From an uncultured Actinomycetota bacterium (GTDB lineage Bacteria; Actinomycetota; Actinomycetes; Mycobacteriales; Micromonosporaceae), in contig CAWDLX010000013.1 of NCBI GenBank assembly GCA_963803345.1, positions 133,804 through 197,803 of the forward strand: a stretch of 64,000 nt of DNA. Reading direction: 5' to 3'. The translations under genes and the position numbers were made by a program. Shown in pieces: positions 1-64,000 of the stretch (positions are counted from its first letter, which is position 1; each line of letters opens with the position of its first letter). Below the pieces are notes generated by a model, which saw only the letters and a list, made by a program, of their open reading frames with translations, did no database searches and was not told the DNA's origin.

Positions 1-159
1 CAGGTGGTGATCGTGAAGACGACCGGCGCGACGGCGGTGCGAACCGAGCAGGCGGCGGCGGTGAAGGACCTCACGGTCGGATCGTCGGTGACCGTCACCG
101 GTACCACGGCGGCGGACGGCTCGATGACCGCGACCCAGATCACCGCGCAGTCCAAGTAG
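1..159 (+). CDS. hypothetical protein, C-terminal fragment (5' end outside window)
   Basis: Frame 1 is open from base 1 to TAG 157-159 (...KDLTVGSSVTVTGTTAADGSMTATQITAQSK*). No family recognised. Confidence 0.4.
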   Translation, partial: QVVIVKTTGATAVRTEQAAAVKDLTVGSSVTVTGTTAADGSMTATQITAQSK

Positions 160-160
160 C

Positions 161-522
161 TCAGGGCGCTGTCGGGTCGTCCAGACACAGGCAGAACGGG
201 TGCCCGGCCGGATCCGCGTAGACCCGGAATCCGTCGTCGGGGTGCAGCCGGGTGGCCCCGAGCGCGAGCACCTGGCCTCAGCCGCGTCCAGGTCATCGAC
301 GAAGAAGTCCAGGTGGCTCTGCTGGGGAAACTCGGGATCCGGCCAGCGCGGCCGCCGGTGGTCAGGGGCGGGCTGGAACGACAGCCGTGGCACGCCCTGT
401 GTTCCTAGCACCACCCAGTTGCCGTCATCGATCCGCTCCCAGCCGGTCAGCTCGGTGTAGAACGCGCCGAGCGCTACCGGATCCGGGCAGTCGATCACGT
501 ACGCGTACAACCGACCGATCAT
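161..522 (-). pseudogene. VOC (glyoxalase-like) family protein, one frameshift
   Basis: Reverse strand from ATG (comp. 520-522): MIGRLYAYVIDCPDPVALGAFYTELTGWERIDDGNWVVLG...HLDFFVDDLDAAEA. The frame slips near 275 and continues VLALGATRLHPDDGFRVYADPAGHPFCLCLDDPTAP* (stop comp. 161-163). Same family as 26908-27391. Confidence 0.6.
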
Positions 523-630
523 TGGGTCCACCCCTCCCGAACGGAGGCTACCGCACGTTTGCGCCCCCACAGGGGCCACAACCTGAGTCGGCCGCTGTGG
601 CCGCCGGTGTCGTGGGTGGAGAATGGGCGC

Positions 631-1476
631 ATGGGTAGGGTGACGGACCGACGTAGCGTCACACGGATCGATACCACCACACCAGGTGGAGCGGTCAGGG
701 TGATGGACACGCTGGTCGGCGAGGAGCCGCTGGAGATCCGGGTGGCCCGACCGGGCGGGACGAAGGCCCCGCTCGCGGTGACCATGCGGACCCCGGGCGA
801 CGACATCGATCTGGCACTGGGCTTCCTCCTGACGGAGGGCATCATCGCGGCGGCCGACGACGTGATGACCGCGCAGCTGTGCGCCGGTACCGATGAGCCG
901 AACACCTACAACGTCGTCGACATCACGCTCGCGCCGCACGTGCCGCCACCCAGCACCGACCCGACCCGAGCCTTCTACACGACCAGCTCGTGCGGGGTAT
1001 GCGGGAAGGCGAGCATCGACGCGGTCCGGACCACCTCCCGGTTCAACGTGGCCGGCGACCCGGTGACGGTGACACGCCGCCACACTGGCCGCCTGCCGGA
1101 TCGGCTGCGTAAGGCGCAGAAGGCGTTCGACCGCACCGGTGGGCTGCACGCGGCCGGCCTGTTCACGGCCGGGCGGCGACCTGGTGTGCGTGCGCGAGGA
1201 CGTGGGCCGGCACAACGCGGTCGACAAGGTGGTCGGGTGGGCGCTGCGCGAGCGGGCGCCTGCCGCTGGCCGGCCAGGTGCTGCTGGTCAGCGGTCGGGC
1301 GAGCTTCGAGCTGGTGCAGAAGGCCTCCATGGCCGGGGTGCCGGTGCTGGCGGCGGTGTCCGCGCCGAGCACCCTCGCGGTGGACCTGGCCGCTGATGCC
1401 GGGCTCACGTTGGTGGGCTTCCTCCGCGGCGCGACGATGAACGTTTACGCGGGCGCCGCCCGCGTCGTCGCGCTGA
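631..1476 (+). pseudogene. fdhD: formate dehydrogenase accessory sulfurtransferase FdhD, frameshifted
   Basis: ORF 559-1440 holds MGRVTDRRSV...SSCGVCGKASIDAV...GGLHAAGLF. The continuation [22 protein letters not shown] is in ORF 1139-1396. [37 protein letters not shown]...[13 protein letters not shown] is in ORF 1278-2150. That needs two frame slips (about 1165 and 1265). ATG at 631; 3' end approximate. Confidence 0.8.
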
Positions 1477-1479
1477 CCC

Positions 1480-2512
1480 GTCCGCGTCGAGCTCCACTGT
1501 GGACTGACTCGGCGCGGAGGGGCCGGCCAGGCGGGTGGCGATCCGCTCAGGTCGTCGTGGGCGAGCTGGGCCAACCGGTATTCCGGCTCCTCGAGCACGG
1601 CGCGCGCTCGATGGCGAACCGGGCCAGGCGAGCTCACCGCGGCGCCAGGCGGCCAGGCGCGAAGAGGTCGCCGGACCGTCGAACCAGGTCCGGCTCCGCC
1701 CGCCGCATGACGTCCAGCCAGAGCGCGCGGCTCACGGCGAGCATCGCCGGCCGTTCGATCAGCGCGTCCAGCGCGATCTCGCAGAACTCGTCCCAGCACA
1801 GCAGCAGCGAGATCCATGCGACCGAGTCGTCGTCGGGCCGCCGACCTTCGAGCTGGGCGTCCAGGTACGCGTTCTTGAGCGAGTCCCGCCCGCCCGCATC
1901 CAGCCGTTCGAAGAGTCGTCCTCGTCGGCGGCCTCCACCAGCATGGCATCAGCCGCGTGTAGGCGGCCCGGGTCGCCTCCGCGATCGCTTCCCGCGCGGC
2001 ACCGGTCACCGGGTCGAGCTGGTGTTCGTAGGCCGTCCGGTCGGGCAGCGCGGTCAGCCCGCCATGGTGGCCTCGGCCGCCGAACGGCTGTCGCGCACGT
2101 CGTATTCCTGGCCGTCGGGTGGGCAACAGTCCGGGTCGGTGCACAGATAGGACCAGTACCGGCCGTCCTGCGACCGCAGCGCGTCGAGCAGCTCGGTTCC
2201 GATATCGGCCAGCGCGGCGCCCAGGTGTGGCACCAGCGCCCGCACCAGCGCGTCCGGCCCGTACCCGATGAGGATCGCCTCCTGCACGCCACCCGGGCGC
2301 AGTTCGTCCGCCAGTTCGCGGACCAGAGTGCGGGCGACCTGTGGACTCTCGGGCAGGTTCGCGCACGCGGTCACGACGAGCTGCCGTTCGCGCAGGCCGA
2401 CGAGGACAACGGAGTCGGTCGGATGGTACCCGAGAAGGTAGGGCACCGCGCCGAGAATGTCGCGTGGCTCGGCCAGCTTGAGCCGGAACGGGGGTCCGGT
2501 GGGGTCACTCAT
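1480..2512 (-). pseudogene. DUF4192 family protein, multiple frameshifts
   Basis: ORF 2054-2512 (MSDPTGPPFRLKLAEPRDILGAVPYLLGYHPTDSVVLVGL...) is a typical DUF4192 N-terminus. The rest is spread over all three reverse frames: [28 protein letters not shown]; [44 protein letters not shown]...[15 protein letters not shown]; [15 protein letters not shown]. 3' end uncertain (1480-1540). Confidence 0.6.
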
Positions 2513-2598
2513 GAATGTCGAGCCTGCCGAGACGGCGACCAGGTACGGAAGCGCGAATCGGCGAACTGTGGACAGCCGGGCCGCCTGTGGATAACTGC

Positions 2599-3142
2599 TC
2601 AGGTGTCGAAACGCAGCCCACGCAGGTCGAGCGCGCCGTCCGGGCCGGAAGATGTACCGGCCGACCTGCCCAGATCGTAGGCGAGTGTGACAGTGGCGAC
2701 GGTGTCGAAGCCGGCCGTGTGGAGGCTACGCAGGGCCGCCACATCGCGGACCGGTGGGGACACCGTGAGCCGGCGCAGCCCGCGCCGGCGGGCCTCGTCG
2801 ACGACGGTGGCGAGCAGCGCACGACCGATACCGCGTCCGCGCATGCCGTCGGCCACCACGACCGGCTCGACCTCGCCGGCCCGGCCGTCGAGCATGAGGC
2901 CGACGAAACCGGCCACGCCCCGGTCCGCCTCGGCCACCCACATGCCGGACAGGTTGAGCTGGGTCAGGTACTCCTCGAAATCCGGCGCCCGCGTCGGTCT
3001 CCCGGGCCGCTTCGCCGTAGAGGCCCTGCTGGTGGCGCGTCAGCTCGGCCCAGAGCCGCCGGCAGTCGTTGTGGTCCGCGGGCCGGTAAGGGCGGATGGT
3101 CACCCCCGGCAGGCTCCGGGCGGGTGACAGCATTTCGGTCAT
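2599..3142 (-). pseudogene. GNAT family N-acetyltransferase, one frameshift
   Basis: The N-terminus MTEMLSPARSLPGVTIRPYRPADHNDCRRLWAELTRHQQGLYGE is in ORF 2726-3142. The core MWVAEADRGVAGFVGLMLDG...VVADGMRGRGIGRALLATVVDEARRRGLRRLTV is in ORF 2599-2943. The slip is near 2985. Confidence 0.7.
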
Positions 3143-3183
3143 AAGGTCATGCTTACCCCACCAGCCCGGCCACCGGTACCCGA

Positions 3184-4125
3184 ATGACCCGTGTCGCTAG
3201 GCTGGCACCAATGGACCTGGCGTATCTGCGAGCCCACCCGCAGCAGCTACCAACGTTTCTGCGCCACCAACGCATCCGGGAGACTCCGGTGGCGGGTGGC
3301 TCGATCTGTCAGGCCAGCCGGCTCACCCTCGACGACGGCGCTTCGGTGTTCGTCAAGTACCTCAACGATCCCGGGGCCGGAGAACCGGGCACTTCGCAGC
3401 CCGAGCACTTCTTCGAATCGGAGGCCGACGGCCTACGGTGGCTGGCCGGCGCCGGCCCGTCCGGTGCGCCGGTGCCCGAGGTCCTGGTCGCCGGGCCGGA
3501 CCTGCTCGCACTGGAGTGGGTCGAGCCGGGTCCGGCGACGCCGACCGCCGCCGAGCGGTTCGGGCGGGAGCTGGCCACGACGCACCGGGCCGGCGCCGCA
3601 CGCTTCGGTGCGCCCTGGGCCGGCTTCATCGGGCGCCTTCCTCAGTCCAACGACGGCTCCGGCATGGCCTGGCCCGAATTCTTCGCCGAACGTCGGCTGC
3701 ATCCGCACCTGCGGAGCTCTGCAGACTCGGGTGCTCTGGCAGCTACGGACGTGACACTCGTGGAGTCTGTGCTTTCGCGTATCGACGAGCTTGCTCCACC
3801 CGCCGAGGCGCCGGCTCGGGTGCACGGCGATCTGTGGCCCGGCAACGTGCACTGGAGCATCGAAGACCGCGCATACTTGATCGACCCGTCGGCGCATGGG
3901 GGACACCGCGAGACGGACCTTGCCGAGCTGGCCCTGTTCGGTGGAATGCCGTACCTGCCAAGGTTTCTCGCCGCATACGACGAGGCTTGGCCACTGGCTG
4001 AGGGATGGCGTCAACGGGTACCGCTTCATCAGTTGCACCTGTTGCTCGTGCACACGGCATTGTTCGGCTCGAGCTACCGGGGCGCGGTGGTCGACGCCGC
4101 CCAGGACGCTCTGCGGGGATGGTGA
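3184..4125 (+). CDS. fructosamine kinase family protein
   Basis: Intact 313-aa ORF. It has AGGSICQASRLTLDDGASVFVKY, HGDLWPGNVHW and IDPSAHGGHRETDLAELALFG, typical of the fructosamine/ketosamine-3-kinase family. Confidence 0.85.
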   Translation: MTRVARLAPMDLAYLRAHPQQLPTFLRHQRIRETPVAGGSICQASRLTLDDGASVFVKYLNDPGAGEPGTSQPEHFFESEADGLRWLAGAGPSGAPVPEVLVAGPDLLALEWVEPGPATPTAAERFGRELATTHRAGAARFGAPWAGFIGRLPQSNDGSGMAWPEFFAERRLHPHLRSSADSGALAATDVTLVESVLSRIDELAPPAEAPARVHGDLWPGNVHWSIEDRAYLIDPSAHGGHRETDLAELALFGGMPYLPRFLAAYDEAWPLAEGWRQRVPLHQLHLLLVHTALFGSSYRGAVVDAAQDALRGW

Positions 4126-4156
4126 ACCGGGGCCGGTCGGGCGCTACTGTTCAGGA

Positions 4157-5158
4157 ATGCAGCCTGTGCAAGGTCTCGCCGACCGGTTCGGCCGTGTCGC
4201 CACCGATCTGCGGGTCTCCCTGACCGACCGGTGCAATCTGCGGTGCACGTACTGCATGCCCGAGGAAGGGTTGGCCTGGCTACCGAAGCAGACCGTGTTG
4301 ACCGACGACGAGGTGGCCCACCTCGTTCGCATCGCGGTCGAGCAGTTGGGCGTAACCGAGGTCCGCTTCACCGGCGGCGAACCGCTGCTGCGGCCCGGCA
4401 TCGTCGACATCGTCGCGGCCTCGGCCCAGCTTCGCCCCCGGCCGCGGCTGTCGGTGACCACCAACGGCATCGGACTCAAGCGGCTCGCCGGCGCCCTGGC
4501 GGCGGCCGGCCTCGATCGGGTGAACGTCTCGCTCGACACGCTGCGGCAGGACCGCTTCGCCGAGCTCACCCGCCGTGACCGTCTCGAGGACGTGCTGGCC
4601 GGACTGCGGGCGGCCGACGAGGCCGGGCTCCGGCCGGTGAAGCTCAACGCCGTTCTGATGCGCGGTGTCAACGATGACGAGGCGGTTCCTCTGCTGTCGT
4701 TCGCTCTGACCCACGGGTACGAGCTGCGCTTCATCGAGCAGATGCCGTTGGACGCGCAGCATGCCTGGCGCCGCGAGGACATGGTCACCCAGAGCGAGAT
4801 CCTGGCCGCGCTGGGCGAGCACTATTCGCTGAGTGAGGACCCGCACGAGCGGGGGGCGGCGCCAGCGGAGACGTTCATTGTGGACGGTGGCCCGGCCCGG
4901 GTCGGCATCATCGCCAGTGTCACGCAGCCATTCTGTGGCGCCTGCGACCGGACCCGGCTCACCGCCGACGGCCAGGTGCGCAACTGCCTGTTCAGCCAGG
5001 AGGAGACCGACCTGCGGGGCCTGCTGCGCGACGGTGCCTCCGACGACGTGATCGCCAAGGCCTGGCGGACCGCGATGTGGGGAAAGCGGGCCGGCCATGG
5101 CATCGACGATCCCACGTTCCTGCAGCCGGCGCGGCCCATGTCCGCGATCGGCGGCTGA
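4157..5158 (+). CDS. moaA: GTP 3',8-cyclase MoaA (radical SAM)
   Basis: ATG at 4157 inside ORF 3896-5158. MQPVQGLADRFGRVATDLRVSLTDRCNLRCTYCMPEEG carries the CxxxCxxC radical-SAM motif. The C-terminal cluster region is FCGACDRTRLTADGQVRNCLF. Ends ...PMSAIGG. Confidence 0.95.
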   Translation: MQPVQGLADRFGRVATDLRVSLTDRCNLRCTYCMPEEGLAWLPKQTVLTDDEVAHLVRIAVEQLGVTEVRFTGGEPLLRPGIVDIVAASAQLRPRPRLSVTTNGIGLKRLAGALAAAGLDRVNVSLDTLRQDRFAELTRRDRLEDVLAGLRAADEAGLRPVKLNAVLMRGVNDDEAVPLLSFALTHGYELRFIEQMPLDAQHAWRREDMVTQSEILAALGEHYSLSEDPHERGAAPAETFIVDGGPARVGIIASVTQPFCGACDRTRLTADGQVRNCLFSQEETDLRGLLRDGASDDVIAKAWRTAMWGKRAGHGIDDPTFLQPARPMSAIGG

Positions 5159-5203
5159 AGGTTTCCGATTGTCGGCATATACCGGTCGACGTATCGTGGC
5201 GGC

Positions 5204-5533
5204 GTGACCAAGCCGTTGCAGGAGCCGACCTTTCTGATTCTCACCGCGCTCGCTACGGGTCCGTTGCACGGCTATGGCGTGATCCAGGAGGTGAGCACCC
5301 TGTCCGAGGGACGGGTCGTGCTGCGCCCCGGAACTCTCTACGGTGCGCTTGACCGGCTGGTCGAGCAGGGCCTGGCCGTAGCCGACCGGGAAGAGGTCGT
5401 GGACGGCCGGCTGCGTCGCTACTACCGGCTGACCGATGAGGGAGCCGGGGTACTCGACGCGGAGGCGGCCCGACTGACGACGAACGCCGAAGCGGCGATG
5501 AGCCGGCTGCGCCGCCGGGCCCGCCTGGCTTGA
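5204..5533 (+). CDS. PadR family transcriptional regulator
   Basis: Intact 109-aa ORF: FLILTALATGPLHGYGVIQEVSTLSEGRVVLRPGTLYGALDRLVEQGL...RRYYRLTDEG, a PadR winged helix. Confidence 0.9.
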   Translation: MTKPLQEPTFLILTALATGPLHGYGVIQEVSTLSEGRVVLRPGTLYGALDRLVEQGLAVADREEVVDGRLRRYYRLTDEGAGVLDAEAARLTTNAEAAMSRLRRRARLA

Positions 5534-5616
5534 TGGTGACCGGAGCGCGAGGAGGCGAGCTTGCGAGCGTCGGCGGGAGCTGGCCGGGCCGGCGTCGGCT
5601 GGGGCAGGATGGTGGC

Positions 5617-5853
5617 GTGGTAACGGTGCGGTACTTCGCGGCCGCCCGCGCGGCGGCGGGGGTCAGCGAGGAGACATTCGATGTGCCGTCACTCGGCGCG
5701 CTGCGCAAGGAACTCGCCGCGCGCGGCGAGCGGATGGCGCGGGTCGTCGAGGTGGCGAGCTTCCTGGTCGACGGTCTCGCCTGGCACCAGGCGGACGCGC
5801 CTCTGCCGCGCACCTGCACCGTCGACGTGCTGCCACCCTTCGCCGGGGGCTGA
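5617..5853 (+). CDS. moaD: MoaD/ThiS family sulfur-carrier protein
   Basis: ORF 5530-5853 ends ...VDVLPPFAGG* (C-terminal GlyGly). The homologous start is GTG 5617 (VTVRYFAAARAAAGVSEE...). An alternative ATG at 5533 overlaps the padR stop (TGATG) and would add 28 aa. Confidence 0.75.
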   Translation: MVTVRYFAAARAAAGVSEETFDVPSLGALRKELAARGERMARVVEVASFLVDGLAWHQADAPLPRTCTVDVLPPFAGG

Positions 5854-5866
5854 ACCGTAGCGCCGC

Positions 5867-5971
5867 GCCGGAGGCGCCATATAGCTCCGTGCCGGAGGCG
5901 CCATATAGCTCCGCGCCGGAGGCGCCATATAGCTCCGCGCCGGAGGCGCCATATAGCTCCGTGCCGGAGGC
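5867..5971. repeat. 24-bp tandem repeat, about 4.4 copies (GCCGGAGGCGCCATATAGCTCCGY)
   Basis: Units at 5867-5890, 5891-5914, 5915-5938 and 5939-5962, plus a partial unit at 5963-5971. Copies differ only at the last base (T/C). The repeat is intergenic, between moaD and the metallophosphoesterase gene. Confidence 0.9.
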
Positions 5972-6039
5972 CGCAATGTCGATGAGTGCCGTAGGGATTG
6001 CCTCAGGCGCCATTCGGTAGGTTGGCCGCCGGAGGGAAC

Positions 6040-7179
6040 ATGATCGCGGTTGTGCTGATGGTTGCCCTGCTCGTTGTGGCGGCCGCGCACTACTACCTGT
6101 GGCGTCGGCTCGTGCGCGACACCACCACCAACCGGGTGGTCCGCCGCATCGGTACCGGTGTCGTTGTCGGCCTGGGCGCCGTCCTGCTGGCCAGCCTGAT
6201 CGGCAGTCGCGCCCTACCCAGGACGGCCGAGATCCCGATCGCCTGGCCGGGCTACGTCTGGCTGGCGCTGGTGTTCTACCTGCTGCTGACCGTGGCCGTC
6301 CTGGAGATTCCGGCGTTCGTGCTACGGCGAAGACTCAGGGCCACCGGCGCCGATCCGGCCCGGCGGGTCTTCCTGGCCCGGACCGTCGCGGTGACGGCGG
6401 GCGTCGCCTCGGCCGGGCTGGTCGGGGCGGGCATGGTCTCCGCCCTCGGGGCCCCCGGGCTGAAGCGGATCCAGATCCCCCTGGCCAAGCTGCCCCGCTC
6501 GGCTGATCTGACCCGCATCGCCGTGGTCAGCGACATCCATCTTGGGCCCTTGCGCGGGTACTCCCACACCCGACGCATCGTCGACATGATCAACGGGCTG
6601 GACGCCGATGTCGTGGCCGTCGTGGGTGACCTTGTCGATGGAACCGTGGCCGACCTGGGCTTCGCCGCGTCGCCGTTGCGCGACCTGCGCAGCCGGTACG
6701 GGTCGTTCTTCGTCACCGGCAACCACGAGTACTTCTCGGGCTTCCAGGAGTGGCTGGACGAGGTGGCCGGTTTCGGGGTGACACCGCTGCGCAACGAGCG
6801 GGTGGCGCTCCCGTTCGGGGTGGATCTGGCCGGGGTCAACGACGCGTCCGGTACCGGCTCGGGCGATCCGCCGGACTACGACCGCGCGCTGGGCGGGCGG
6901 GACCCGGCCAAGCCGGTGATCCTGCTCGCCCATCAGCCGGTGCAGGCCCACCAGGCGGCCGCTCACGGGGTCGACCTGCAACTGTCCGGGCACACGCACG
7001 GCGGGCAGATGGTCCCGTTCAACGTGATCGTCCGGGCGACCGGGCAGCCGGTGATCAGTGGGCTGGGCGTGGTCGACGGCATGCCGGTGTACGTGACCAA
7101 CGGGGCCGGATTCTGGGGGCCGCCGGTGCGGGTCGGGGCGCCGCCGGACATCACGCTGGTCGAAGTGCGATCGATGTAG
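6040..7179 (+). CDS. membrane-anchored metallophosphoesterase
   Basis: ATG 6040 inside ORF 5998-7179. N-terminal TM helices (MIAVVLMVALLVVAAAHYYLW...), then the calcineurin-like motifs VVSDIHLG, VGDLVDG, TGNHEY and GHTHGGQ. Confidence 0.85.
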   Translation: MIAVVLMVALLVVAAAHYYLWRRLVRDTTTNRVVRRIGTGVVVGLGAVLLASLIGSRALPRTAEIPIAWPGYVWLALVFYLLLTVAVLEIPAFVLRRRLRATGADPARRVFLARTVAVTAGVASAGLVGAGMVSALGAPGLKRIQIPLAKLPRSADLTRIAVVSDIHLGPLRGYSHTRRIVDMINGLDADVVAVVGDLVDGTVADLGFAASPLRDLRSRYGSFFVTGNHEYFSGFQEWLDEVAGFGVTPLRNERVALPFGVDLAGVNDASGTGSGDPPDYDRALGGRDPAKPVILLAHQPVQAHQAAAHGVDLQLSGHTHGGQMVPFNVIVRATGQPVISGLGVVDGMPVYVTNGAGFWGPPVRVGAPPDITLVEVRSM

Positions 7180-7236
7180 TAACGGACAGTATCGACACGC
7201 CACAACACGCGCGCCCGGCCGCCCTGGGCGCCGCCG

Positions 7237-10200
7237 ATGGGGCAAGATGCGCCTGTGCCGGTAGCGCCCGAGTCGTGGATCGCCGATCTCCATATCCACT
7301 CGAAGTTCTCGCGAGCGTGCAGTCGAGACCTCGACCTGGAGAATCTCGCGTGGTGGGCGCAGCGCAAAGGCGTCCGGGTGCTCGGTACCGGCGACTTCAC
7401 CCACCCCGGTTGGTACGACGATCTGTGTACCCACCTGCGCCCGGCCGAGCCCGGCCTGTTCCGGCTCGCCCCCGACCGCGAGCAGCACGTGCGTGACCGG
7501 TTGCCGGCCAGCGTGCACGCCCCGGTCCGGTTCATGCTCAGTGTCGAGATCTCGACGATCTACAAGCGCGGCGACCGCACCCGTAAGGTCCACCACCTGA
7601 TCTACCTGCCTGACCTGGACTCGGTGCGGCGGTTCAACGACCGGCTCGGCCACGGCGCCGGCGGGCTCGGCGCGAACCTGGGCTCCGACGGCCGCCCGAT
7701 CGTCGGTCTCGACTCGCGCGATCTGCTCGAGGTGACGCTCGAGGCGAGTCCGGACGGGTTCCTGGTGCCGGCGCACATCTGGACGCCGTGGTTCTCGGCA
7801 CTCGGCTCACGCTCAGGTTTCGACGCCATCGCCGACTGCTACGCCGACCTGGCCGGTCACATCCATGCCGTCGAGACCGGGCTCAGCTCCGATCCGGCGA
7901 TGAACTGGCGTGTGTCCAGTCTGGACAGTTACCAGCTGGTGTCCAATTCGGACGCGCATTCGCTCCAGGCGCTGGCCCGGGAGGCGACCAGGCTGGACAC
8001 CGGACTCGACTACGCCAGCATCAGGCGGGCGCTGGAGACCGGTGAAGGTCTAAAAGGGACAGTCGAGTTCTTCCCCGAAGAGGGGCGCTATCATGCCGAC
8101 GGCCACCGTGCCTGCGGGGTGTGCTGGGAGCCCCGGCGGACCCGGGAGGGCGGCGGCGCCTGTCCGGAGTGTGGCAAGCCGCTCACGATCGGCGTCCAGC
8201 ACCGTGTCGAGGAGCTGGCGGACCGGCCCGCCGGTTACCGTCCCCCGCAGCGTCCGGACGCCACCTATCTCATCCAACTGCACCAGGTACTCGGCGAGAT
8301 CCAGCGGGTGGGGTCGAAGGCGAAGGCGGTGGAGTCCGCCGCCGCCCGCCTGGTCGCGGAGCTCGGCTCCGAGCTGGACATCCTCATCAGTCGCCCGCTG
8401 GACGAGGTCGCCCGGGTCGGCGGTGAGCTGTTCGGCGAAGCGGTCGCCCGGCTGCGCCGCGGCCAGGTGCACCGCCAGCCGGGGTACGACGGCGAATACG
8501 GCGTGGTCCGCCTCTTCGACCCGACCGAGCTGGCCGCCGGTACCGGTCGGGTGGAGGCCCTGTTCGAGGTCGAGCCGGCGGCCCGCCCGGTGACGCACCG
8601 GACGCCGGCGATCGTCCCCCGCCGCCGGCTACCCCGCCAGGCAGCTCCCCCCGCTGGCCGCGCCGGCCTCTCCCCACCAGCCGTGGGAACCCATGCTGGC
8701 CGGCATGGAGGAGGTCGGTACCGGCCTGCTCGACCGGCTGGACGCGTTGCAGCGGGTGGCGGCGTCGGCGTCCAAGGGCCCTCTGCTCGTGGTGGCCGGG
8801 CCGGGAACAGGCAAGACCCGGACGTTGACCCATCGCATCGCCTACCTCTGCGCTGAGCTGGGCGTACCACCCGAGCAGTGCCTGGCCATCACCTTCACCC
8901 GCCGGGCGGCTGAGGAGATGCGGACCCGCCTGGCCGGACTCATGCAGGACGGCGCCGAGCGGGTCACGGTATCCACGTTCCACGCCCTATGCCTGTCCAT
9001 CCTGCGCGAGCACCCCGAGCAGGCCGGCCTGCGGCCGGGCTTCGGCGTGGCCGACGACGTGGAGCGCACCGCGGCCCTGGCGGCCGACGCGAACAGCCTG
9101 CGTGAGCAGAATCTGGTGGATCTGGACGAGCTCGGACCACTGGCGGTCGCGCTGCTGCGCGAGGACCCGTGCTGGCCGGACAGTACCGGGTCCGCTGGCC
9201 CTGGGTCTTTGTCGACGAGTACCAGGACGTGGACGGCGTCCAGTACGAGTTGCTCCGACTATTGACCACAGTGGACGGTAACGTCTACGCGATCGGCGAC
9301 CCGGATCAGGCCATCTACTCGTTCCGCGGCGCCGACGTCGGCGTACTTCCTGCGCTTCAGCGAGGACTTCCGAAACGCTCGGGTGGTCCGGCTCACCCGC
9401 AACTACCGCTCGAGCGCGCCCGATCATCGCGGCCGCCTCGCAGGCCATCGCGCCCACCTCGCTGGTCCGGGGGCGGCGCCTCGACCCGGCCCGGCTCGAC
9501 CCGGACGCGCCGCTGGTCGGGCTGCACGCGGCGGCGTCGCCGGTGGCCGAGGCCGAATGGGTCGCCCGTACCATCGACGAGCTCGTCGGTGGGGTGTCGC
9601 ACCGGTCGTTCGACGGCGGCCGGGTCGATTCGCGAGCCGGGGTACGCGACGCACTGTCCTTTTCGGATATTGCCGTGCTCTACCGGACCGATGCCCAGGC
9701 CGGCGCCGGTTGTCGAGGCGCTGGCCCGGGCCGGCATCCCGGTGCAGAAGCGGACGCCACGACCGGCTCAGCGCCCGCCGGGCGGTCGGCGAGATCGCGC
9801 GCGAGCTGCGCTTCACGCCGCGAGCCGAGGGCAATCCTGGTCGACCGGGTACGCGCGGCTGGTGCGGCCCTCGCCTCAGGGCGGCCGCGACTGTTCGAAG
9901 TGGACGGTTCCGCACCGGCCATGCTGACCGAGGCGGAGGTGTACATCCGCGGTCGAACTGCTCGTGCCGCTCGCCGCCCGATGCGATGACGACCTGGAGA
10001 GCCTGTTGCAGGCACTCGCGACCGGCGCCGAGGTCGACGCGCTGGATCCGCGGGCTCAGGCGGTCACCGCGTTGACTCTGCACGCGTCGAAGGGTCTCGA
10101 GTGGCCCGTGGTGTTCATCATCGGATGCGAGGACGATCTCCTGCCGCTGCGCCTACCCGGGCAGGCGCACCGACGAGATCGCGGTCGCCGAGGAGCGCCG

Positions 10201-54977: not shown

Positions 54978-55811
54978 TCAGACCCAGGGCAGCCCGGTGA
55001 TCCGCTCGTACACCTCGACATACCGGTCCCGGGTCGCGGCCACGATCTCCGGGGGCAGCGCCGGCCCCGGTGCGGTGCGATCCCAGCCGGTGCTGATGGC
55101 CCAGTCGCGGACGATCTGCTTGTCGAACGGGTACTGCACCTGCCCGGGCCGATAGTCGGCGGCTGACCAGAACCGGGACGAGTCCGGGGTGAGGACCTCG
55201 TCGGCCAGCACCATGACGCCGTCCGGCGATCGTCCAAACTCGACCTTCGTGTCGGCGATGAGCAGCCCCCGTTCGCCGGCCAGCTCCGCCCCTCGCTGGT
55301 AGATCTCCAGCGTGATCCGGCGCAGCTCGTCAGCGGTATGACTACCTTCCTGGGTCACCACCTCGGAGAACGTCATCGGGGTGTCGTGTTCGCCTAGTTG
55401 AGCCTTGGTGGTCGGCGTGAAGATCGGCTCGGGTAGCCGGCTCGCCTCGACCAGCCCGTCCGGCAGCGGTACGCCGCTGATCGCGCGGTCCCGGTGATAG
55501 TCCTTGAGCCCCGAACCGGCCAGGTACCCCCGGGCAACGCATTCGACCGTGACCATGTCGAGCCGCCGGCAGCGGACAGCCCGCCCGGCCCACTCGGCCG
55601 GCACATCGGTGCCCGAGATGATGTGATTGGGCACGATGTCAGACAGCCGGTCGAACCACCACAGCGACAGCTTGGTGAGCACCTTCCCCTTGTCCGGGAT
55701 CAAGGTGGGCAGCACAACGTCGAAAACCGACACCCGGTCGGACGCGACGAGGATCAGATCCTCGCCGTCGGTGTAGACATCGCGCACCTTGCCCGAGTGG
55801 ACGAGCTCCAT
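54978..55811 (-). CDS. purC: phosphoribosylaminoimidazolesuccinocarboxamide (SAICAR) synthase
   Basis: ATG at comp. 55809-55811 inside ORF 54978-55958: MELVHSGKVRDVYTDGEDLILVASDRVSVFDVVLPTLIPDKGKVLT...VECVARGYLAGSG...LLIADTKVEFG...DEVLTPDSSRFW. Confidence 0.95.
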   Translation of the reverse strand: MELVHSGKVRDVYTDGEDLILVASDRVSVFDVVLPTLIPDKGKVLTKLSLWWFDRLSDIVPNHIISGTDVPAEWAGRAVRCRRLDMVTVECVARGYLAGSGLKDYHRDRAISGVPLPDGLVEASRLPEPIFTPTTKAQLGEHDTPMTFSEVVTQEGSHTADELRRITLEIYQRGAELAGERGLLIADTKVEFGRSPDGVMVLADEVLTPDSSRFWSAADYRPGQVQYPFDKQIVRDWAISTGWDRTAPGPALPPEIVAATRDRYVEVYERITGLPWV

Positions 55812-55829
55812 GCCGGTGACGCTACCGGA

Positions 55830-56245
55830 ACACAGGTGCGGGCTGACGGGGACGCGTCGAGAACCGTGGCACCGAACGTTTCCCGGCCTCGACGACATCG
55901 TGCAGCGCGTCCTGGCCGTCGTCTTCTTCCGGTGGCCCCGGGTGCGCCAGGCCGACAAACGTCGACGCCTACGTCGAGAAGATCCTGGTCAACCGCTTCA
56001 TCGACGACCAGCGGCGCGGCTGGGCCAAGGTACGGCTGATGGAGTCATTGCCCGAACGGGCCGGCGGACAATCTCGAAGAGGTGCACACACGGCTGGACG
56101 TGCGCAACGCCTGCCGCCCTGGGCCAACGGGCGGTGCTGGTGCTGCGGTTCCTGTGTGACCGTTCGGTCGAGGACACCGCCGAGGCGTTGAACTGCCGCA
56201 CCGGCACGGTCAAGAGCACCACCAGCACCGGCCCGCAGGAGCTGA
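55830..56245 (+). pseudogene. ECF/SigE-family RNA polymerase sigma factor remnant (5'-truncated, frameshifted)
   Basis: ORF 55789-56847 and neighbouring frames give a region 2 fragment GLDDIVQRVLAVVFFRWPRVRQAD / VDAYVEKILVNRFIDDQRRGWAKVRL. Region 4 is RAVLVLRFLCDRSVEDTAEALNCRTGTVKS. Only about 20 codons are available upstream of DDIVQ before the divergent purC start, although these sigmas normally have about 45. Confidence 0.5.
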
Positions 56246-57041
56246 TCTACGCGGTCGACCCGGCCGCCGACACGAGCTTCGTCGGCGGCGACTGGGTTGA
56301 CGTGACACTCTGTGCCGCCGGGATCATCCCCTGGCAACTGCGTCCAGGCGGGCGTCCAAACGCCAACGGCCGTGCCGTACCGCAGCGGCAGAACGCCGCC
56401 CCGGTAGGAGGACGGGGCGATCCGGCCGTACGGTTCACATTCGATCCGTCCACTGTGGTGCCCGCCGGAGTGGACACTGTGGACGGACTGGCCTTCCGGT
56501 GGGCCGATGGCGCGTGGGTGGTGGTACGGGCCGTGCTGGGAGCGGCGGAGCCGTCGGCCGAGGTGGCCCGCCGGGTCGCGGAAGGACTGGTCTTCGGTCC
56601 GGGCGACCGGGTGCGGATGCCGTTCACGATGGCCCGCCCGACCGCCGCGTCCACGCTGGTCACGACGTCCGCGTGGAACGACACACCGGGGGCGTTCGCG
56701 TTGGGATTCAGCCTGCACCCGGCTGTGGTGCGCAACGCGGTCGGCGACGCCGTGTCAGGCGCGGGCGAGCTGAGCATCGGACTCGTGCGGGCGCGCTGCC
56801 GGACGCGCAGCCCAACACCACCATCGGTGGACGACCGACGTACGTGAGCTACTTTCCCGGTGGTGTGTCAGGCCGGGTGGTCCTCTTCGGCGAGGAGAGC
56901 TACGTGGAGCTGACGGTCGGCCTCGGTGAGGGCATGGACCACCTCGGCCGGGAGCAGGCGATCGCCCTGGTGGCCAGCGTCCAGGAGCTCAACCCATCCA
57001 GCGATCGCAGCACGTGGAGCGACCCGCCGCTGCGGGACTAG
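56246..57041 (+). pseudogene. hypothetical protein downstream of sigma factor (N-terminus apparently fused or lost, frameshifted)
   Basis: Continuation of ORF 55789-56847 (...VRFTFDPSTVVPAGVDTVDGLAFRWADGAWVVVRAVLGAAEPSAEVARRVAEGLVFGPGDRVRMPF...). Then ORF 56499-57041 (...PNTTIGGRPTYVSYFPGGVSGRVVLFGEESYVELTVGLGEGMDHLGREQAIALVASVQEL...*). No start, TM or anti-sigma segment is identifiable. Confidence 0.35.
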
Positions 57042-58152: not shown

Positions 58153-58239
58153 GGAGGGCTCGCCTAGTGGCCGATGGCGGCGGTCTTGAAAACCGCTTCA
58201 GGAGCGATCCTGACGTGGGTTCGAATCCCACGCCCTCCG
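58153..58239 (+). tRNA. tRNA-Ser (anticodon UGA)
   Basis: The sequence folds by hand. Acceptor GGAGGGC / GCCCTCC plus discriminator G. Anticodon stem GCGGT/ACCGC with loop CTTGAAA (TGA). Long variable arm TTCAGGAGCGATCCTGAC. T arm GTGGG-TTCGAAT-CCCAC. CCA is not encoded. Confidence 0.95.
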
Positions 58240-58518
58240 CCTTGACCAGCCATAACGGAGATCGCACCTGGAACCCGCAGGGGTGATCTTGCCGGTATGG
58301 ACACTCTATGGACACAGACTGCCGAGAGATTTCCCGGAGCCGTACACGGGCGGACGAGGGGCGACTCGACCCGCCCACCAGTGACTGCCTTCCTGGCGGC
58401 ACAGCAATGCGTGATATGCCGTGGACGGGTCACCGGCCGAGGTGAGCACATCGACCACGAGGCGTGATGCACGCTTCTGGGCCTGCCGGGTCCGTTTACC
58501 CTCGACCTGAACTTTGCG

Positions 58519-61100
58519 CTAACTGGTGGCTCGTATGCGTTCGCGTGCCTGAACACGCAGCGCTTGTCTGACCTCCGTGTGGACGTCGACGCGTGCGGTG
58601 GCGGCCAGCTCGAGCGAGACCGCGATGCCGTACCGAACAGGCGGCGAGGCCGTTCTGGCTTCGCGAATGCCTGCGTCGATGTCGATGCGAAGCGCTTGCC
58701 CATTGGTGAAGGCGACTGCCGCGCTTCCTTCGAGAACTTCGTGCTGCACCGTGCCTCTTGTCACAATGTGATGATCGGCCTGGGTCCGTCGCACTCCGAT
58801 CTCCTGCTGCGGCGGCTGAAACTTGAGCACCGCCAAACGGTGGCGCTGCGTGCGGGTGTTGACGGGCGACAGCCACGCCAGCGTGATCGTCATTCGCCTC
58901 CACTCGGTCGTTGTGGAGAGGCTTGGTGGAAGCGGGAAAGCAAGTGTGTGGCGCTCGTGATCGCGAATGGACCCGGCGCCAATGAGCACGGCACGGGTCC
59001 GGCTCGCTGCAGCCACTCGGTCTCGATCGAGGGCGCCGTATCCGACGAGCTGCGTGACGTCGCGCCTCAACGTCGCGTTCGCCAAGCCGAGCGCGTCTGC
59101 GAGCCAGGGCCTCATCTCGCCCCACGAGGCGGCGTGCACTAGGAGCGCCTTGGCTAGGACCGGGTGATACTGCGGGTCCGGGAACCGGAACTCGCCTTCC
59201 TCCGATTCGGTCGTCTCCAGCACGTCAAGGACTTGGTTGGTGATCCGTGTCGCGAGCGCGGCTGCGTTGCTAGTGCCGTGGGTGAACGCGGTCGCCTGAA
59301 GGTCCCCGTGGTGGCCTGGCGCTGCGACACGTAGACCTGGACCGAGCGCCGCTGTCGAAGCTGGCAAGAGCGCCACGTGGCTGCCCGTGGTCTGGGGCGG
59401 CCGTTGAAACAGCTGTCGGCCGCCCGGGAGCAGGATCTCGGGTTTGACCGCTCGCCGGTAGCCGAACCCGACCGCGCTGTACAGCGCGGGCATGCCTGCC
59501 TGACCTGCGTCCAAGATTGAGTCAGAGACCGTCGCGTCCGCGTCGTCGTCATGGAGGGCGCCGACGGTCACGACGTTGACGGCTTCGGCGGGCGAAAACA
59601 GCCGCCGCTGACGAGCACGGGAATGGATGTCCGCGGCAACGATCTTGCGGAGAGTTGTCTCGTCGTGAACGACGTGCGCCGGGAACAGTGGCGGCCACTG
59701 GATGGTTGCCCGCGCTTACCAGGACGACCAGGTTGTAGCGGTGGGCAAGCCAGTCGAGAAGCTTGGCTAAGGGGCTCATGCGGCGGGCGAAGGTTCTGGC
59801 CGGATCCCCGATCGACAGGTTGACTACACGCACGCTCGGTGCGGCCGGCGGCTGCTGGCCGTCGCCCTCGAAGATGCGGCGGAAGGCTCGGTGAACCAGG
59901 TCCACGAGCAGCTCGTTGCGGACCGTCGTCTCCTCCTGGGGGTTGGCCGGATGCGGCTCCAGGATCGGCCGAACATATAGCCGGGTGGATAGCGGAAGCC
60001 CTTGCGAACCGAGGTCACCGTGGCAGATAAGGGAGGCCATCGCTGTCCCGTGCTGGCGCTGCGCGGCTGTGTACCGGCTCGCGTAGTCATCGGGGTCGTC
60101 GATGACAAGTCGGTCCGCAAGTTGGGCGTGGTTGGCGAGCGGTAAGCCGTCTAAGAGCGCAACACGCGGCGCCGCAATCTGAGGAAGGGGTGCCGTTTCA
60201 GCCGGACCCGCCTCCGATACATCGAGCGCGGGGATAGCCATCGGGCGTGCAGGTGATACGAACATGATCGTCTCCGCGGTGAGGAGCTCGATCGCGTCCG
60301 GGCCAGCTTCGAGTACCGCTTCGACTTGCGCGTAGGGAAGATCCGCAAGAACGGCGTGGTAGCCGATCTCGGCAAGTGTTGCGGTGTTGATCACCGTGCC
60401 TCCGCCGTCGGCTACCAGTCGTTCGACCTCACCCTGAGCGGCCTGTCGACTAGCGATGTCCGATCGGTACCACAGCTCGATCTCAACGCGCGTTGACCCT
60501 GACTGTCCGACGACGGCCTTGTCTTCCTCCCATCTTTCCAGGAGCCCTGTCTCGCGAACCCGGTCCTGGGGTCCCCACCGTCGGATGTCACGCAGGAGCC
60601 CGAACACCGTCTTCAACGAGGCGAGGCCATAGGCGAAGGTGACGTTCGGGTTCGGTCTGCCATCCATCGAACAGTCGGATGAGCTCGGTGACGGCCCGGG
60701 CGTTCGTCATGACCATGTAGAGGGTTTCCGGCACCGGCTTGTCGGCGGGCTGGCCATCTTCGACGTAGTGGAAGTCGTCGTCAGGGTCCGCCTCGTCCTC
60801 CTCTAACTCAGCCAGAAACTCCATGCCTGGAACGCGGCGAACAGCGCCAAGAAACTGCTCAACCGTTCCCACGAGGTCAAAGACGACCACCAACTCCGGA
60901 TCTGGTTCGGTGGTTTCGGTTGCCAGTCGGGCGCGTTCCGCAGCCAGCGCGTCCCGGAGGGCCCGGAACTGGGGGGACAGGCGCTGCCCCTGCCTGGACG
61001 GACTTGGACGGCGCGGTTGCGGTACCGGCCGCTGCGGCCCCGGGGGCGTCTGCTGGACCGTCGGCGCGCCGAAGGCCAGCAATTGGCGCAACTCGGTCAT
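58519..61100 (-). pseudogene. S8 family (subtilisin-like) serine peptidase, IetS-like; two frame slips
   Basis: Three reverse ORFs join. ORF 60588-61121: MTELRQLLAFG...ELVVVFDLVGTVEQFLGAVRRVPGMEFLAE...LYMVMTNARAVTELIRLFD. ORF 59549-60667: ...VALLDGLPLANH (Asp), QHGTAMASLICHGD (His), NLVVLVSAGNH. ORF 58519-59571: ...AFTHGTSNAAALATR (Ser)...LLVHAASW...LSPVNTRTQRHRLAVLKF... Slips are near 60655 and 59700. The ATG at comp. 61098-61100 overlaps the ATPase stop (ATGA). An alternative start is 61121. Confidence 0.8.
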
Positions 61101-62071
61101 TCGTGGGCTTGCGTCCGCCATTGGTCCAGTCTGCTACGAGCGATAGCGCCAAGGTCGGCATCTGGCAGCGTCAACACGTAGCGTCGTCTTACGTCTTGAG
61201 CGAACTCTTCCAACTCCCCGTAGCTCGCGCCCGCGAGTCGGTCCGCCAACGTACGAGGTGCGAGCCCCAGGCCACCGCCGAGCCGAGTGCCCAGCCGTTC
61301 GAAGAACTCGGCTGCCTGGGCGCGCGATGGCGCATTGAGGGTCAGGCGTGCTTGGAACCGGCGCCAAGTTGCCCGGTCGAGCAGCTCGCCGTGGTTCGTC
61401 GCGCAGACGAGGATGACGTGCGAGGGAATCCTGTCGACCTGCAGCAGAAGCGTCGACACCACCCGTTTGATCTCGCCGGTCTCGTGAGTGTCGGCGCGTT
61501 CCTTCGCGATCGTGTCGAACTCGTCGAAGAACAAGACACAACGCCGGGTCCGAGCGAACTCGAAGACCCGGTCGATCCGAGCCGCGGTCTCGCCGAGAAA
61601 GCTGGACACCGTTCCCTCGTACCTGACCGTGTACAGGGGCACCATGACCTCGGCAGCGATGGCTTCTGCCAGGCTGGTCTTGCCGTTGCCGGGCGCGCCC
61701 TCCAACAGGATCCTGTTGCGCGGCTCGATGCCATGACTTCGCAGCAGGTCGACCCGGCGGTGTTCCTCAACGATCTCGGAGGCCACGGTCGCGACGGTCT
61801 TGTTGAGCTGCAGGTCGGCAAGGCGCCGGCGGGGAACGACCTCATGCAGCAGGTCCGACATCTGCCGCCTGACCTCGTCCCGAACGAGAAGATCACTTGA
61901 GCCAGACGTAGTGATCAGCTCGGCGAGACGGTCGGCTACAAGGTGGTGCTGGTTGCTCCGCTCCTCGGCGATGATCGCTTCAACCAATGAGCGAAACCGC
62001 TCACCATCGCCTCGGCGTTGGGCGTCGACCAAGTCGATGATCAGATCAGACCGGGCCACGGCTTCCTCCAC
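61097..62071 (-). CDS. AAA+ family ATPase, IetA-like
   Basis: Intact 324-aa ORF. Walker A: ILLEGAPGNGKTSLAEAIA. Walker B: CVLFFDEFDTIA. Sensor 1: LVCATNHGELLD. Also RATWRRF. It lies immediately upstream of, and is translationally coupled to, the S8 peptidase gene. Confidence 0.85.
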   Translation of the reverse strand: MEEAVARSDLIIDLVDAQRRGDGERFRSLVEAIIAEERSNQHHLVADRLAELITTSGSSDLLVRDEVRRQMSDLLHEVVPRRRLADLQLNKTVATVASEIVEEHRRVDLLRSHGIEPRNRILLEGAPGNGKTSLAEAIAAEVMVPLYTVRYEGTVSSFLGETAARIDRVFEFARTRRCVLFFDEFDTIAKERADTHETGEIKRVVSTLLLQVDRIPSHVILVCATNHGELLDRATWRRFQARLTLNAPSRAQAAEFFERLGTRLGGGLGLAPRTLADRLAGASYGELEEFAQDVRRRYVLTLPDADLGAIARSRLDQWRTQAHE

Positions 62072-62158
62072 CTGTCGACTTACCCAACTGTAAGGGCCGC
62101 GGTGCCCGGAGGTCCTGGCAAGACCTGTGAGCGACGGCCGTTAGTATATGATAGTCAT

Positions 62159-62449
62159 ATGATTCAGGCGGGACCGTCGGTGACACGCTTGTTGTGCGCG
62201 ACGGACCGTTGCTCGACGCTGGTCCACTGGCCCATCGAGGTGAATCGCAGGCTTGATCAACTTCAGGATCTCGCGACCGGTGCGGGGACCCACGTCAGCC
62301 GCGCTCAGATCCTGGCTGCACTGGTGATGGCCGCGGAAGAGAGCGGTGAGGCCGTCGCCGAACTCGTCCGCATATATCGCCTCATGGAGGCGGGCGACCT
62401 CGCCGAGCCTGCCGATGGACGCCGACCTGGCCCCCGCAAGATCCGTTAA
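62159..62449 (+). CDS. hypothetical small protein (possible ribbon-helix-helix-like regulator)
   Basis: ATG 62159 inside ORF 62018-62449: MIQAGPSVTRLLCATDRCSTLVHWPIEVNRRLDQLQDLATGAGTHVSRAQILAALVMAAEESGEAVAELVRIYRL... The strand-helix-helix pattern is only suggestive. It is divergent from the ATPase gene. Confidence 0.4.
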   Translation: MIQAGPSVTRLLCATDRCSTLVHWPIEVNRRLDQLQDLATGAGTHVSRAQILAALVMAAEESGEAVAELVRIYRLMEAGDLAEPADGRRPGPRKIR

Positions 62450-62716
62450 CACTGAAGGTCGGCGCCGTGGCCTTGCCGGTGAGGGCGTCCGGTGTTCGTG
62501 TCAAGTGAGGGTGCGGCGAGCAAAGTCCTTGCACCGGGCACGACATGGCCGAATTCGGGCGCTTAGTGGAGGCCCGGCATCAATGACAGTTCCGTCGGTG
62601 CGGCGGGTGGGGTACGTCCTGTTGGACCTCGCTAGGGTTGCGGCATGTAGCTCCGCCTGAAAGGCCGTAGGGCTAGGGCCGGGGCTTAACGCGCACCAGG
62701 AAGGACGAGCTGCCGG

Positions 62717-64000
62717 ATGCCCCGCTTGACCCTGCCGCAGCTGGAGCGGCACCTGTTCACAGCTGCCGACGTGCTCCGCGGCTCCATGGAGGCATCGGCC
62801 TATAAGGAATACATCTTCGGGATGCTGTTTCTGAAGTATGCCTCGGACCAGTTCGAGGCGGAGCAGCAGCAGGTTATCGCCGAGCAGCGCTTACGTGGCC
62901 GCAGCCAGGCTGACGCTGAGCAGCGCGCCGAGTCGCCGTCGTTCTACAAGACGTTCTACGTGCCGCAGCGGGCCCGCTGGGAACAGATCCGTGATCATCT
63001 CCATAAGACGGTCGGGAGTGGGCTGAACAAGGCGCTGGAGGAGCTGGAGCACAGTAACCGGTCGCTCGACGGGGTGCTGCAACACATCGACTTCAACCGC
63101 AAGATCGGCCAGTCGTCGATGTCCGACAAGAAGCTGCGCGAGCTGATCATGCACTTCAACAAGGTGCCCCTCCGGCAGCAGGACTTCGAGTTCCCCGACC
63201 TGCTGGGCGCTGCCTACGAATACTTGATCCGCGACTTCGCCGACTCGGCAGGGAAGAAGGGCGGGGAGTTCTACACGCCCCGCGACGTGGTCCGTCTGAT
63301 GGTGCAGATCGCCGACCCGCATCCAGGGATGAGCGTTTACGACCCATGCACCGGCTCGGGCGGCATGCTGATCCTCTCCAAGGAATACATCGAGGAGTCG
63401 GGTGGTGATGGGCGCAATCTGGCGCTCGCCGGCCAAGAGAAGGACGGCAGCGTCTGGGCCATCTCCAAGATGAACATGCTGCTCCACGGCATCCCGGACG
63501 CCGACCTCCGCAACAACGACGACGGCACGCTCGAAGACCCGGCTCACATCACCGGCGGTGAGCTGCAACGGTTCGACCGCGTGATCACCAATCCGCCGTT
63601 CTCGATGAACTACGTGGCTGACGCCATCCCGTTCCCCGAGCGCTTCCGTTACGGCTACACCCCCGACAAGGGCAAAAAGGCCGACCTTATGTTCGTCCAG
63701 CACATGCTGGCGGTGACTCGGCCGGGCGGCATGGTCACAACGGTCATGCCTCACGGCGTGCTCTTCCGCGGTGGAGACGAGGGCCGGATCCGTACCGGTT
63801 TCCTGAACGACGACCTCATCGAGGCTGTCATCGGCCTCGGGCCGCAGCTCTTCTACGGCACGGGCATCCCTGCCTGCATACTGGTGCTCCGCCCGGTCGG
63901 CTCAAAGCCCGCGGCGCGCAGGGGCAAGGTGCTGTTCATCAACGCCGACCGGGATTACCGGGAGGGCCGGGCGCAGAACTATCTGGAGCCCGAGCACATC
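62717..64000 (+). CDS. hsdM: type I restriction-modification system methyltransferase subunit HsdM (3' end outside window)
   Basis: Not in the ORF track because it is open at the window edge. ATG 62717, 428 codons in frame to base 64000: [46 protein letters not shown] (HsdM N domain), [30 protein letters not shown] (motif I), RVITNPPFS (motif IV), [10 protein letters not shown]. Confidence 0.9.

Follow-up and report, generated by a model that had tools for sequence, protein, structure and literature searches.

Hybrid and gap-filled assemblies, in which short-read contigs are bridged by long-read consensus, would be expected to show kilobase-scale steps in accuracy that are blind to gene boundaries, and Mycobacterium leprae is one example of pseudogene accumulation under reductive evolution. 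The errors of raw PacBio RSII reads are spread evenly along the reads and amount to 8.0% insertions, 3.2% deletions and 1.7% substitutions; about 0.5-1% error remains after consensus correction (PMC7671305). When high-GC genomes are assembled from PacBio reads at high coverage, the residual errors are mainly G/C deletions, more than 70% of them in homopolymer tracts (PMC8574707). In the curated pseudogenes of other high-GC bacteria, the Candidatus Burkholderia leaf-nodule symbionts, the insertion-to-deletion ratio is 0.76; of 396 deletions, 131 are 1 nt long, and sizes follow a power law in which deletions average about 19 nt (PMC6054270). Here, a 64,000 nt stretch of DNA from an uncultured member of the Micromonosporaceae (contig CAWDLX010000013.1 of assembly GCA_963803345.1, positions 133,804 to 197,803; hereafter, the window) is compared with these systems. 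About half of its genes are broken by single-base insertions or deletions that are confined to kilobase patches. These lesions, whose positions, type and clustering, like the absence of other lesion types, can be read directly from the DNA, are most probably consensus errors from sequencing or assembly rather than mutations.

The window has a GC content of 70%, and the best match to its SerS (43875-45137) among species representatives has 80% amino-acid identity, with Micromonospora pattaloongensis, Actinoplanes and Rugosimonospora (all Micromonosporaceae) as the nearest relatives. Frame slips were located by a codon-usage Viterbi decoder, trained on 13 intact genes of the window, whose states are non-coding, plus-strand coding and minus-strand coding DNA, and which allows penalised frame jumps of +/-1 or 2 nt. 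A junction between frames was called a gene boundary when the upstream frame reached a stop within 21 nt, and frameshift-like when that frame remained open for more than 21 nt past the switch. A simple sliding-window frame plot of GC at third codon positions (GC3) was too noisy, and the Viterbi codon model was used instead. Across the whole window, the decoder identifies 101 same-strand frame junctions, of which 80 are frameshift-like (79 after removal of one at the window edge). The resulting density of 1.25 slips/kb compares with 0.094/kb when the same model is applied to 14 relatives' loci (28 junctions in 297.5 kb, 69-75% GC), a background that is 13-fold lower.

The slips are distributed very unevenly. 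The initial annotation proposed that disrupted and intact genes alternate in contiguous blocks, and the calculations bear this out: all 79 slips fall within its seven disrupted blocks (39.1 kb, 2.0/kb), and the Viterbi scan finds none within its six intact blocks (22.0 kb). The gaps between slips have a coefficient of variation of 1.78, above the maximum of 1.67 over 20,000 uniform simulations, which rules out uniform random error, as had been argued from the gene blocks. Moreover, the longest slip-free gap spans 8,750 nt (simulated P = 0.00075), and further clean gaps span 6.5, 4.3 and 4.3 kb. From the variation of the gaps and the longest gap together, it follows that the clustering is genuine and did not arise from post-hoc grouping.

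Comparison with orthologues locates the same lesions. Open reading frames (ORFs) from the relatives' loci were matched to the window by tblastn and then aligned by frameshift-aware protein-to-DNA dynamic programming, with database homologues added for EndoQ-UvrD. A frameshift penalty of -12, combined with low-identity or over-long stop-to-stop queries, produced spurious paired shifts and 'stops' outside genes; the final alignments used a penalty of -16, and events were retained when homologues agreed on them or when they lay in high-identity alignments. These alignments place slips at the positions predicted by the decoder, with one orthologue spanning two to eight frames of the window. In particular, slips are found in fdhD (1171 and 1253), in EndoQ-UvrD (about 8647, 9165, 9340 and 9419), in the GDPD gene (seven to eight sites between 33242 and 33945), in the FAD amine-oxidase-like oxidoreductase gene (41960, 42057 and 42400) and in the GT2 glycosyltransferase gene (50025, 50051 and 50094), and the orthologues of slip-bearing genes read in a single frame. 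When the frames are corrected, Pfam matches run end to end across the junctions, as for FdhD (3-236/237), Beta_propel (1-494/495), EAL (3-235/236), DUF5926 (1-242/264) and MoaC (1-136/136), and likewise for DUF4192, GNAT, UvrD, MoeA, MoaE, MoCF, GGDEF-EAL, TY-Chap, epimerase, LytR-CpsA-Psr (LCP), GDPD, HisKA/HATPase, F420 oxidoreductase, amine-oxidase-like, Peripla_BP_6, methyltransferase, GT2, transketolase-like and S8 products. Genes of the clean blocks, including SerS, PheA, MoaA, the HAD hydrolase, the Zn-dehydrogenase and others, align without any shift.

The lesions fall into a single size class. Codon-level comparison with the best orthologues resolved 36 of them: 25 have exactly one extra base, 8 lack exactly one base and 3 are ambiguous, and none of these 36 is demonstrably longer than 1 nt; by frame class, the +1 to -1 ratio is 55:24 across all 79 junctions. 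For example, the lesions at 1171, 1253 and 2980 are pure +1 nt, the consecutive lesions of the GDPD gene are all +1 nt, and the FAD amine-oxidase-like gene, 73% identical to its orthologue, contains three clean +1 nt insertions. Within the limits of the disrupted genes, the corrected paths contain no in-frame stops; the 'stops' counted in alignments fall outside those limits, in over-long stop-to-stop query ORFs, and short excursions that might mask a stop resolve into pairs of frameshifts. Stop-creating changes make up 2.3-2.6% of the possible substitutions in these coding sequences. Under an assumed substitution-to-indel ratio of about 10:1, taken from general knowledge of bacterial mutation spectra, natural decay would be expected to leave about 18-21 nonsense codons, and about 6 under a ratio of 3:1, compared with the observed 0. 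Insertion sequence (IS) elements were likewise not seen in the disrupted genes. Identity within 8 codons on either side of the lesions is 65%, the same as gene-wide, and disrupted genes (67-77% identity to orthologues) are as well conserved as intact genes (73-81%).

The sequence context of the lesions is unremarkable. The earlier suggestion that some slips sit in G/C runs does not hold beyond chance: compared with random positions, no homopolymer enrichment is found in the longest run within +/-4 nt of the lesions (mean 2.53 for insertions, 2.32 for deletions and 2.45 for random positions), and runs of at least 4 nt, of which the window has about 470, occur near 6% of insertions, 5% of deletions and 8.6% of random positions. 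Local GC content is 0.717 at lesions and 0.702 otherwise. Programmed frameshifting or slippage rescue was also considered and rejected, as single genes contain up to 10-13 slips in unrelated sequences without long runs; such mechanisms typically use one conserved site per gene, at a slippery heptamer or a long homopolymer tract. A search for RNA genes in which the error-rich stretches might show non-coding indels gave none there, the only credible RNA gene in the window (tRNA-Ser, 58153-58241) lying in a clean stretch.

The decoder and the alignments together divide the window into alternating stretches (Table 1). Slip density is similar from one error-rich stretch to another (1.85-3.6 slips/kb in seven of eight, and 1.0/kb for the pair in the IetS gene), and the spacing within them is near-exponential (coefficient of variation 0.93, mean 387 nt). 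All genes within them are hit, whatever they encode, and three genes contain the edge of a patch. In particular, EndoQ-UvrD is slip-free over its first 1,380 nt and has 10 slips in the next 1.8 kb, both slips of the beta-propeller gene (18147 and 18470) lie within its final 520 nt, and the periplasmic binding protein gene has a single slip, at its 3' end. The initial annotation was correct that the UvrD fusion and the GGDEF/EAL gene contain many slips, and its counts (about 8 and 10) were somewhat too low: there are 10 and at least 13, respectively. Its single disrupted block at 26908-37469 does contain disrupted genes, as reported, and is not continuously disrupted, being interrupted by a clean interval of 3.3 kb.

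Table 1. Alternating stretches of the window and individual features discussed in the text.
Feature	Position	Strand	Slips	Content and remarks
Error-rich stretch 1	274-2982		6 (1.9/kb)	VOC/Glyoxalase_6, FdhD, DUF4192 and GNAT genes
Clean stretch	2983-7237		0	fructosamine kinase, MoaA, two small ORFs, metallophosphoesterase
Error-rich stretch 2	7238-18470		31 counted (2.7/kb); more hidden in 15321-15455	EndoQ-UvrD helicase fusion, MoeA, MoaE, MoaC, MoCF, GGDEF-EAL membrane protein, TY-Chap, beta-propeller 3' end
Clean stretch	18471-27219 (8.7 kb)		0	most of beta-propeller gene, 157-aa conserved protein, two dynamin-like GTPases, VOC remnant, Uma2
Error-rich stretch 3	27220-28189		3	VOC N-terminal fragment, 5' part of NAD-epimerase gene
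Low-lesion stretch	28190-31509 (3.3 kb)			within a disrupted block of the initial annotation; intact LCP gene 29358-30308
Error-rich stretch 4	31510-37016			two LCP paralogues, GDPD, histidine kinase, DUF5926, neighbours
Clean stretch	37017-40494		0	PheA prephenate dehydratase, four small genes
Error-rich stretch 5	40495-42399		5	F420-type oxidoreductase, FAD amine-oxidase-like gene
Clean stretch	42400-48868 (6.5 kb)		0	SerS, HAD hydrolase, conserved 200-aa protein, alpha/beta hydrolase, most of periplasmic binding protein
Error-rich stretch 6	48869-53131		15 (3.3/kb)	periplasmic binding protein 3' end, methyltransferase, GT2 glycosyltransferase, beta-lactamase-like and transketolase-like genes
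Clean stretch	53132-55955		0	MerR, Zn-dependent dehydrogenase, PurC
Error-rich stretch 7	55956-56787		4	ECF-type sigma factor with attached C-terminal region
Isolated slip pair	59688-60652		2	IetS (S8 protease) gene
VOC/Glyoxalase_6 C-terminal remnant	26087-26200	minus		Glyoxalase_6 profile positions 93-105/106 only
Uma2-family putative endonuclease gene	26253-26816	minus		intact; between the two VOC fragments; also matches PADLOC candidate PDC-S03
VOC N-terminal fragment	27119-27424	minus		
IetS S8 protease	58570-60971	minus	2	split by the slip pair listed above
IetA AAA ATPase	61097-62071	minus		E = 1e-141
Type I restriction-modification methyltransferase	62726-64000	plus		extends beyond the window

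The Viterbi count is an underestimate. A 135-nt 'non-coding' gap at 15321-15455, within the GGDEF domain, conceals about four more shifts. Stretch 4 has 13 Viterbi slips up to 36150, and further lesions appear in the orthologue alignments at about 35682, 36610, 36652 and 37010; a junction at about 31063-31070 is a gene boundary by the Viterbi filter and a +1 nt slip by one orthologue alignment. An excursion at 32136-32180 in an LCP gene resolves into one +1 and one -1 shift that bracket the conserved S-I-P-R-D motif, and the DUF5926 ORF (35823-36698) remains open because its +1 and -1 lesions, at about 36069 and 36155, compensate each other and leave only 86 nt out of frame. In the IetS gene, profile positions 148-460 and 477-840 are encoded in two different frames. 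The three LCP paralogues form a tandem array (29340-32830), in which the first is intact and the other two have slips.

The most probable explanation, to which we assign a probability of roughly 85%, is a mosaic of consensus accuracy in which under-corrected stretches of single-molecule long reads alternate with accurate ones. The initial annotation had favored the same explanation, and it gains from the restriction to single-base indels, the lack of nonsense codons, the excess of insertions and the two-state density of slips. Stretches of about 1-11 kb with random single-base indels, at roughly 2-3.6/kb, would alternate with essentially error-free stretches of about 3-9 kb. Such a pattern would be expected where the local depth of noisy single-molecule long reads falls to a few reads, where accurate short-read contigs are bridged or gap-filled by poorly corrected long reads, or where polishing was limited to parts of the contig; the kilobase scale of the patches would match read lengths or gap-fill segments. 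As every gene in such a stretch is hit, gene callers would report truncated or split proteins. The similar density of the patches, the exponential spacing within them and the clean blocks between them are what a two-state error process would give, and would not be expected from gene-by-gene inactivation at different times. Further, lesions also occur where the ORF is unbroken, as in the compensated pair of DUF5926, which counts for an artefact.

The window resembles the long-read gene fragmentation described with Kastor (PMC12007338) and ARAMIS (PMC8574707) in that single-base indels split conserved genes whose corrected translations are full length. In those cases, the lesions are private to the assembly, whereas the closest comparison for the window is at only 77-80% protein identity. 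The residual errors of the ARAMIS type are mainly G/C deletions, most of them in homopolymers, whereas in the window insertions dominate, without homopolymer enrichment, as in the random error of raw reads; its sharp kilobase-scale switching between error-rich and error-free DNA also goes beyond what a low genome-wide error rate shows. The insertion-to-deletion ratio of about 2.3-3:1, the lack of context bias and the scarcity of substitution-type damage resemble the raw profile of PacBio continuous long reads (CLR), and this insertion-dominated, context-independent profile tentatively points to under-corrected data of the PacBio-CLR type and not to homopolymer-limited chemistries such as 454, Ion Torrent or Nanopore, whose indels concentrate in homopolymer runs. 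For hybrid or gap-filled assemblies, the usual causes of short-read gaps are not evident in the window: the error-rich stretches are not repeats, and GC content, considered as a cause of the patches through effects such as short-read dropout, was rejected for lack of a meaningful difference (0.710 in error-rich and 0.696 in clean stretches).

Several observations weigh against a mosaic consensus. The lesions have no homopolymer association, unlike the residual errors reported for high-coverage PacBio or Nanopore assemblies (PMC8574707), and the platform attribution is tentative for this reason. Such plainly important genes as SerS, PheA, PurC and MoaA are intact, and most disrupted genes are dispensable in the laboratory, so that selection would also fit; dispensable genes are also found in the clean blocks (fructosamine kinase, HAD and alpha/beta hydrolases, dynamin-like GTPases and Uma2). 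Each patch edge within a gene has an alternative reading; for example, the clean first 44% of EndoQ-UvrD could be a retained stand-alone EndoQ. The VOC remnant, which is not an indel, is probably real. Finally, the nearest genomes in the SerS and EndoQ homologue searches stand at about 77-80% identity at the protein level (the closest non-self database homologues of the EndoQ product are 76-79% identical), and a metagenome scan with a dynamin-like GTPase query found no relative.

An unlikely alternative, though one that would likewise yield private, patchy, indel-only lesions, is a consensus artefact of another kind, such as strain collapse in a metagenome bin, mis-polishing by reads from paralogues or related organisms, or post-assembly corruption of the record. 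The closest relatives that the SerS search found in sequence collections include several metagenome bins, and many of the EndoQ-UvrD homologues in databases are partial, a few of them with the arginine-rich tails that are typical of frameshifts. Strain collapse or mis-polishing would be expected to add substitutions and to lower the identity to orthologues in the error-rich stretches, and neither is seen; with the exception of the LCP paralogues, those stretches are also not repeats.

Genuine recent pseudogenisation, in which reductive evolution accumulates frameshifts in dispensable blocks and leaves essential genes intact, is quite improbable. It would account for a disrupted set that is mostly accessory (GGDEF-EAL, LCP paralogues, glycosyltransferase, methyltransferase, IetS and several molybdenum cofactor (Moco) genes), for the intact SerS, PheA and PurC, and for the VOC remnant and the possibly truncated sigma-factor gene, which suggest that some decay is genuine. 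The Candidatus Burkholderia symbionts (PMC6054270) are indeed alike in having many genes with several frameshifts each, a high GC content and spared essential genes; their pseudogenes, in contrast, show a deletion bias, multi-nucleotide deletions and nonsense mutations, and none of the three is seen in the window. Its lesions are only +/-1 nt, with neither multi-nucleotide deletions nor IS insertions seen in disrupted genes, with 0 nonsense codons where about 6-20 would be expected, and with an excess of insertions over deletions (more than 2:1) that is opposite to the deletion bias of pseudogenes. Decay would also have to produce a similar density in most of the unlinked patches with exponential spacing inside them, to leave untouched such dispensable genes as those for fructosamine kinase, the HAD and alpha/beta hydrolases and the dynamin-like GTPases, to spare MoaA and hit FdhD, MoeA, MoaE, MoaC and MoCF of the same Moco pathway, and to place a compensated pair inside the open DUF5926 ORF. 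It is very unlikely that the lesions are real and reflect a very early stage of decay, in which accessory kilobase blocks each acquired many single-base, insertion-biased frameshifts; if they were, they would imply an unusual mutational process, for example through an error-prone polymerase or a repair defect, that creates regional, context-free +1 insertions faster than point substitutions.

Uniform errors whose blocks reflect chance and post-hoc grouping can be dismissed with near certainty: the blocks were delimited with the data in view, and 79 randomly placed points would often leave as many gaps longer than 2 kb (n = 8; simulated P = 0.27), but both the gap variation and the 8.75 kb clean gap contradict them, and 22 kb without a slip, at the rate of about 2.6/kb in error-rich stretches, is effectively impossible.

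Two lesions may have a different origin than the single-base slips. The initial annotation described an internally deleted VOC remnant, and the profile match agrees, identifying a C-terminal fragment with the last 13 positions of the Glyoxalase_6 profile. The remnant reads '...KNRVHLGF' followed by 'PWIAMADPEGNEFRVA', the central part of the domain being absent, and it is probably a genuine rearrangement or decay and not a simple indel. The two VOC fragments that flank the intact Uma2 gene suggest a real insertion or deletion event; they do not overlap, and both contain a '...VPE(G/K)...' motif, so that they may stem from two paralogues. The proposed 5' truncation of the extracytoplasmic function (ECF)-type sigma-factor gene (about 55885) is weakly indicated, as its Sigma70_r2 match starts at profile position 23 (E = 0.05), and it is not established; the gene adjoins the divergent purC, and a truncation is possible.

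The lesions have little biological weight and matter as a warning about data quality in the source assembly and the proteins derived from it. About 27 kb of the 64 kb window would have roughly 0.3% indel error, and a similar share of the 199 kb source contig is presumed. Such errors mislead gene calls, pseudogene counts, completeness estimates, pathway inferences and defence-system calls; for example, the Moco pathway looks half broken, and IetS looks split. Truncated products are already present in protein databases, as the EndoQ-UvrD product of the window is on record as a 539-aa 'EndoQ'. Four tests, namely lesions of only +/-1 nt, no nonsense codons, more insertions than deletions and two-state spacing, can separate artefact from decay and could serve elsewhere as a read-free screen. 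Several EndoQ-UvrD homologues from large contigs of other public assemblies (P0076, P0092 and P0116) end in arginine-rich tails such as '...RRTRRRRYPGRGGG...'. These tails are typical of frameshifted translation in high-GC DNA and suggest that public actinobacterial assemblies, from long reads or metagenomes, often contain indel errors of the same kind.

Several further features of the window stand apart from the frame slips. Within 58153-64000, a low-GC island (0.64-0.66, compared with 0.70 elsewhere) lies directly downstream of the tRNA-Ser(TGA) gene at 58153-58241. In this island, IetA and IetS constitute an IetAS anti-phage system, and, together with the neighboring restriction-modification gene (Table 1), they suggest that a defence island has integrated at the tRNA gene. 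The two adjacent dynamin-like GTPase genes (807 and 542 aa; 21587-25635) are intact and share a stop/start overlap at 24007-24010; the first contains a long region of low coding potential (22068-22330).

In Actinoplanes and Micromonospora relatives (loci L001, L003, L010 and L026), serS, the HAD gene and the homologue of 46241-46840 are followed by one contiguous run of genes orthologous to 20302-21490, 20172-20660, the beta-propeller gene, TY-Chap, fdhD, DUF4192, GNAT, fructosamine kinase and moaA. The counterparts of this run in the window (631-21490) are located 25-45 kb upstream of the serS region (43875-46840) and are partly inverted. This difference in gene order reflects either a real rearrangement that separates the genera or a possible misjoin, in view of the assembly quality. 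Lastly, a near-perfect 24-nt tandem repeat (5858-5971; 4.8 copies, 95% identity, unit TAGCTCCGCGCCGGAGGCGCCATA) occupies the intergenic region upstream of the metallophosphoesterase gene, and other G-rich imperfect repeats are located at 46127-46233 and 53760-53931.

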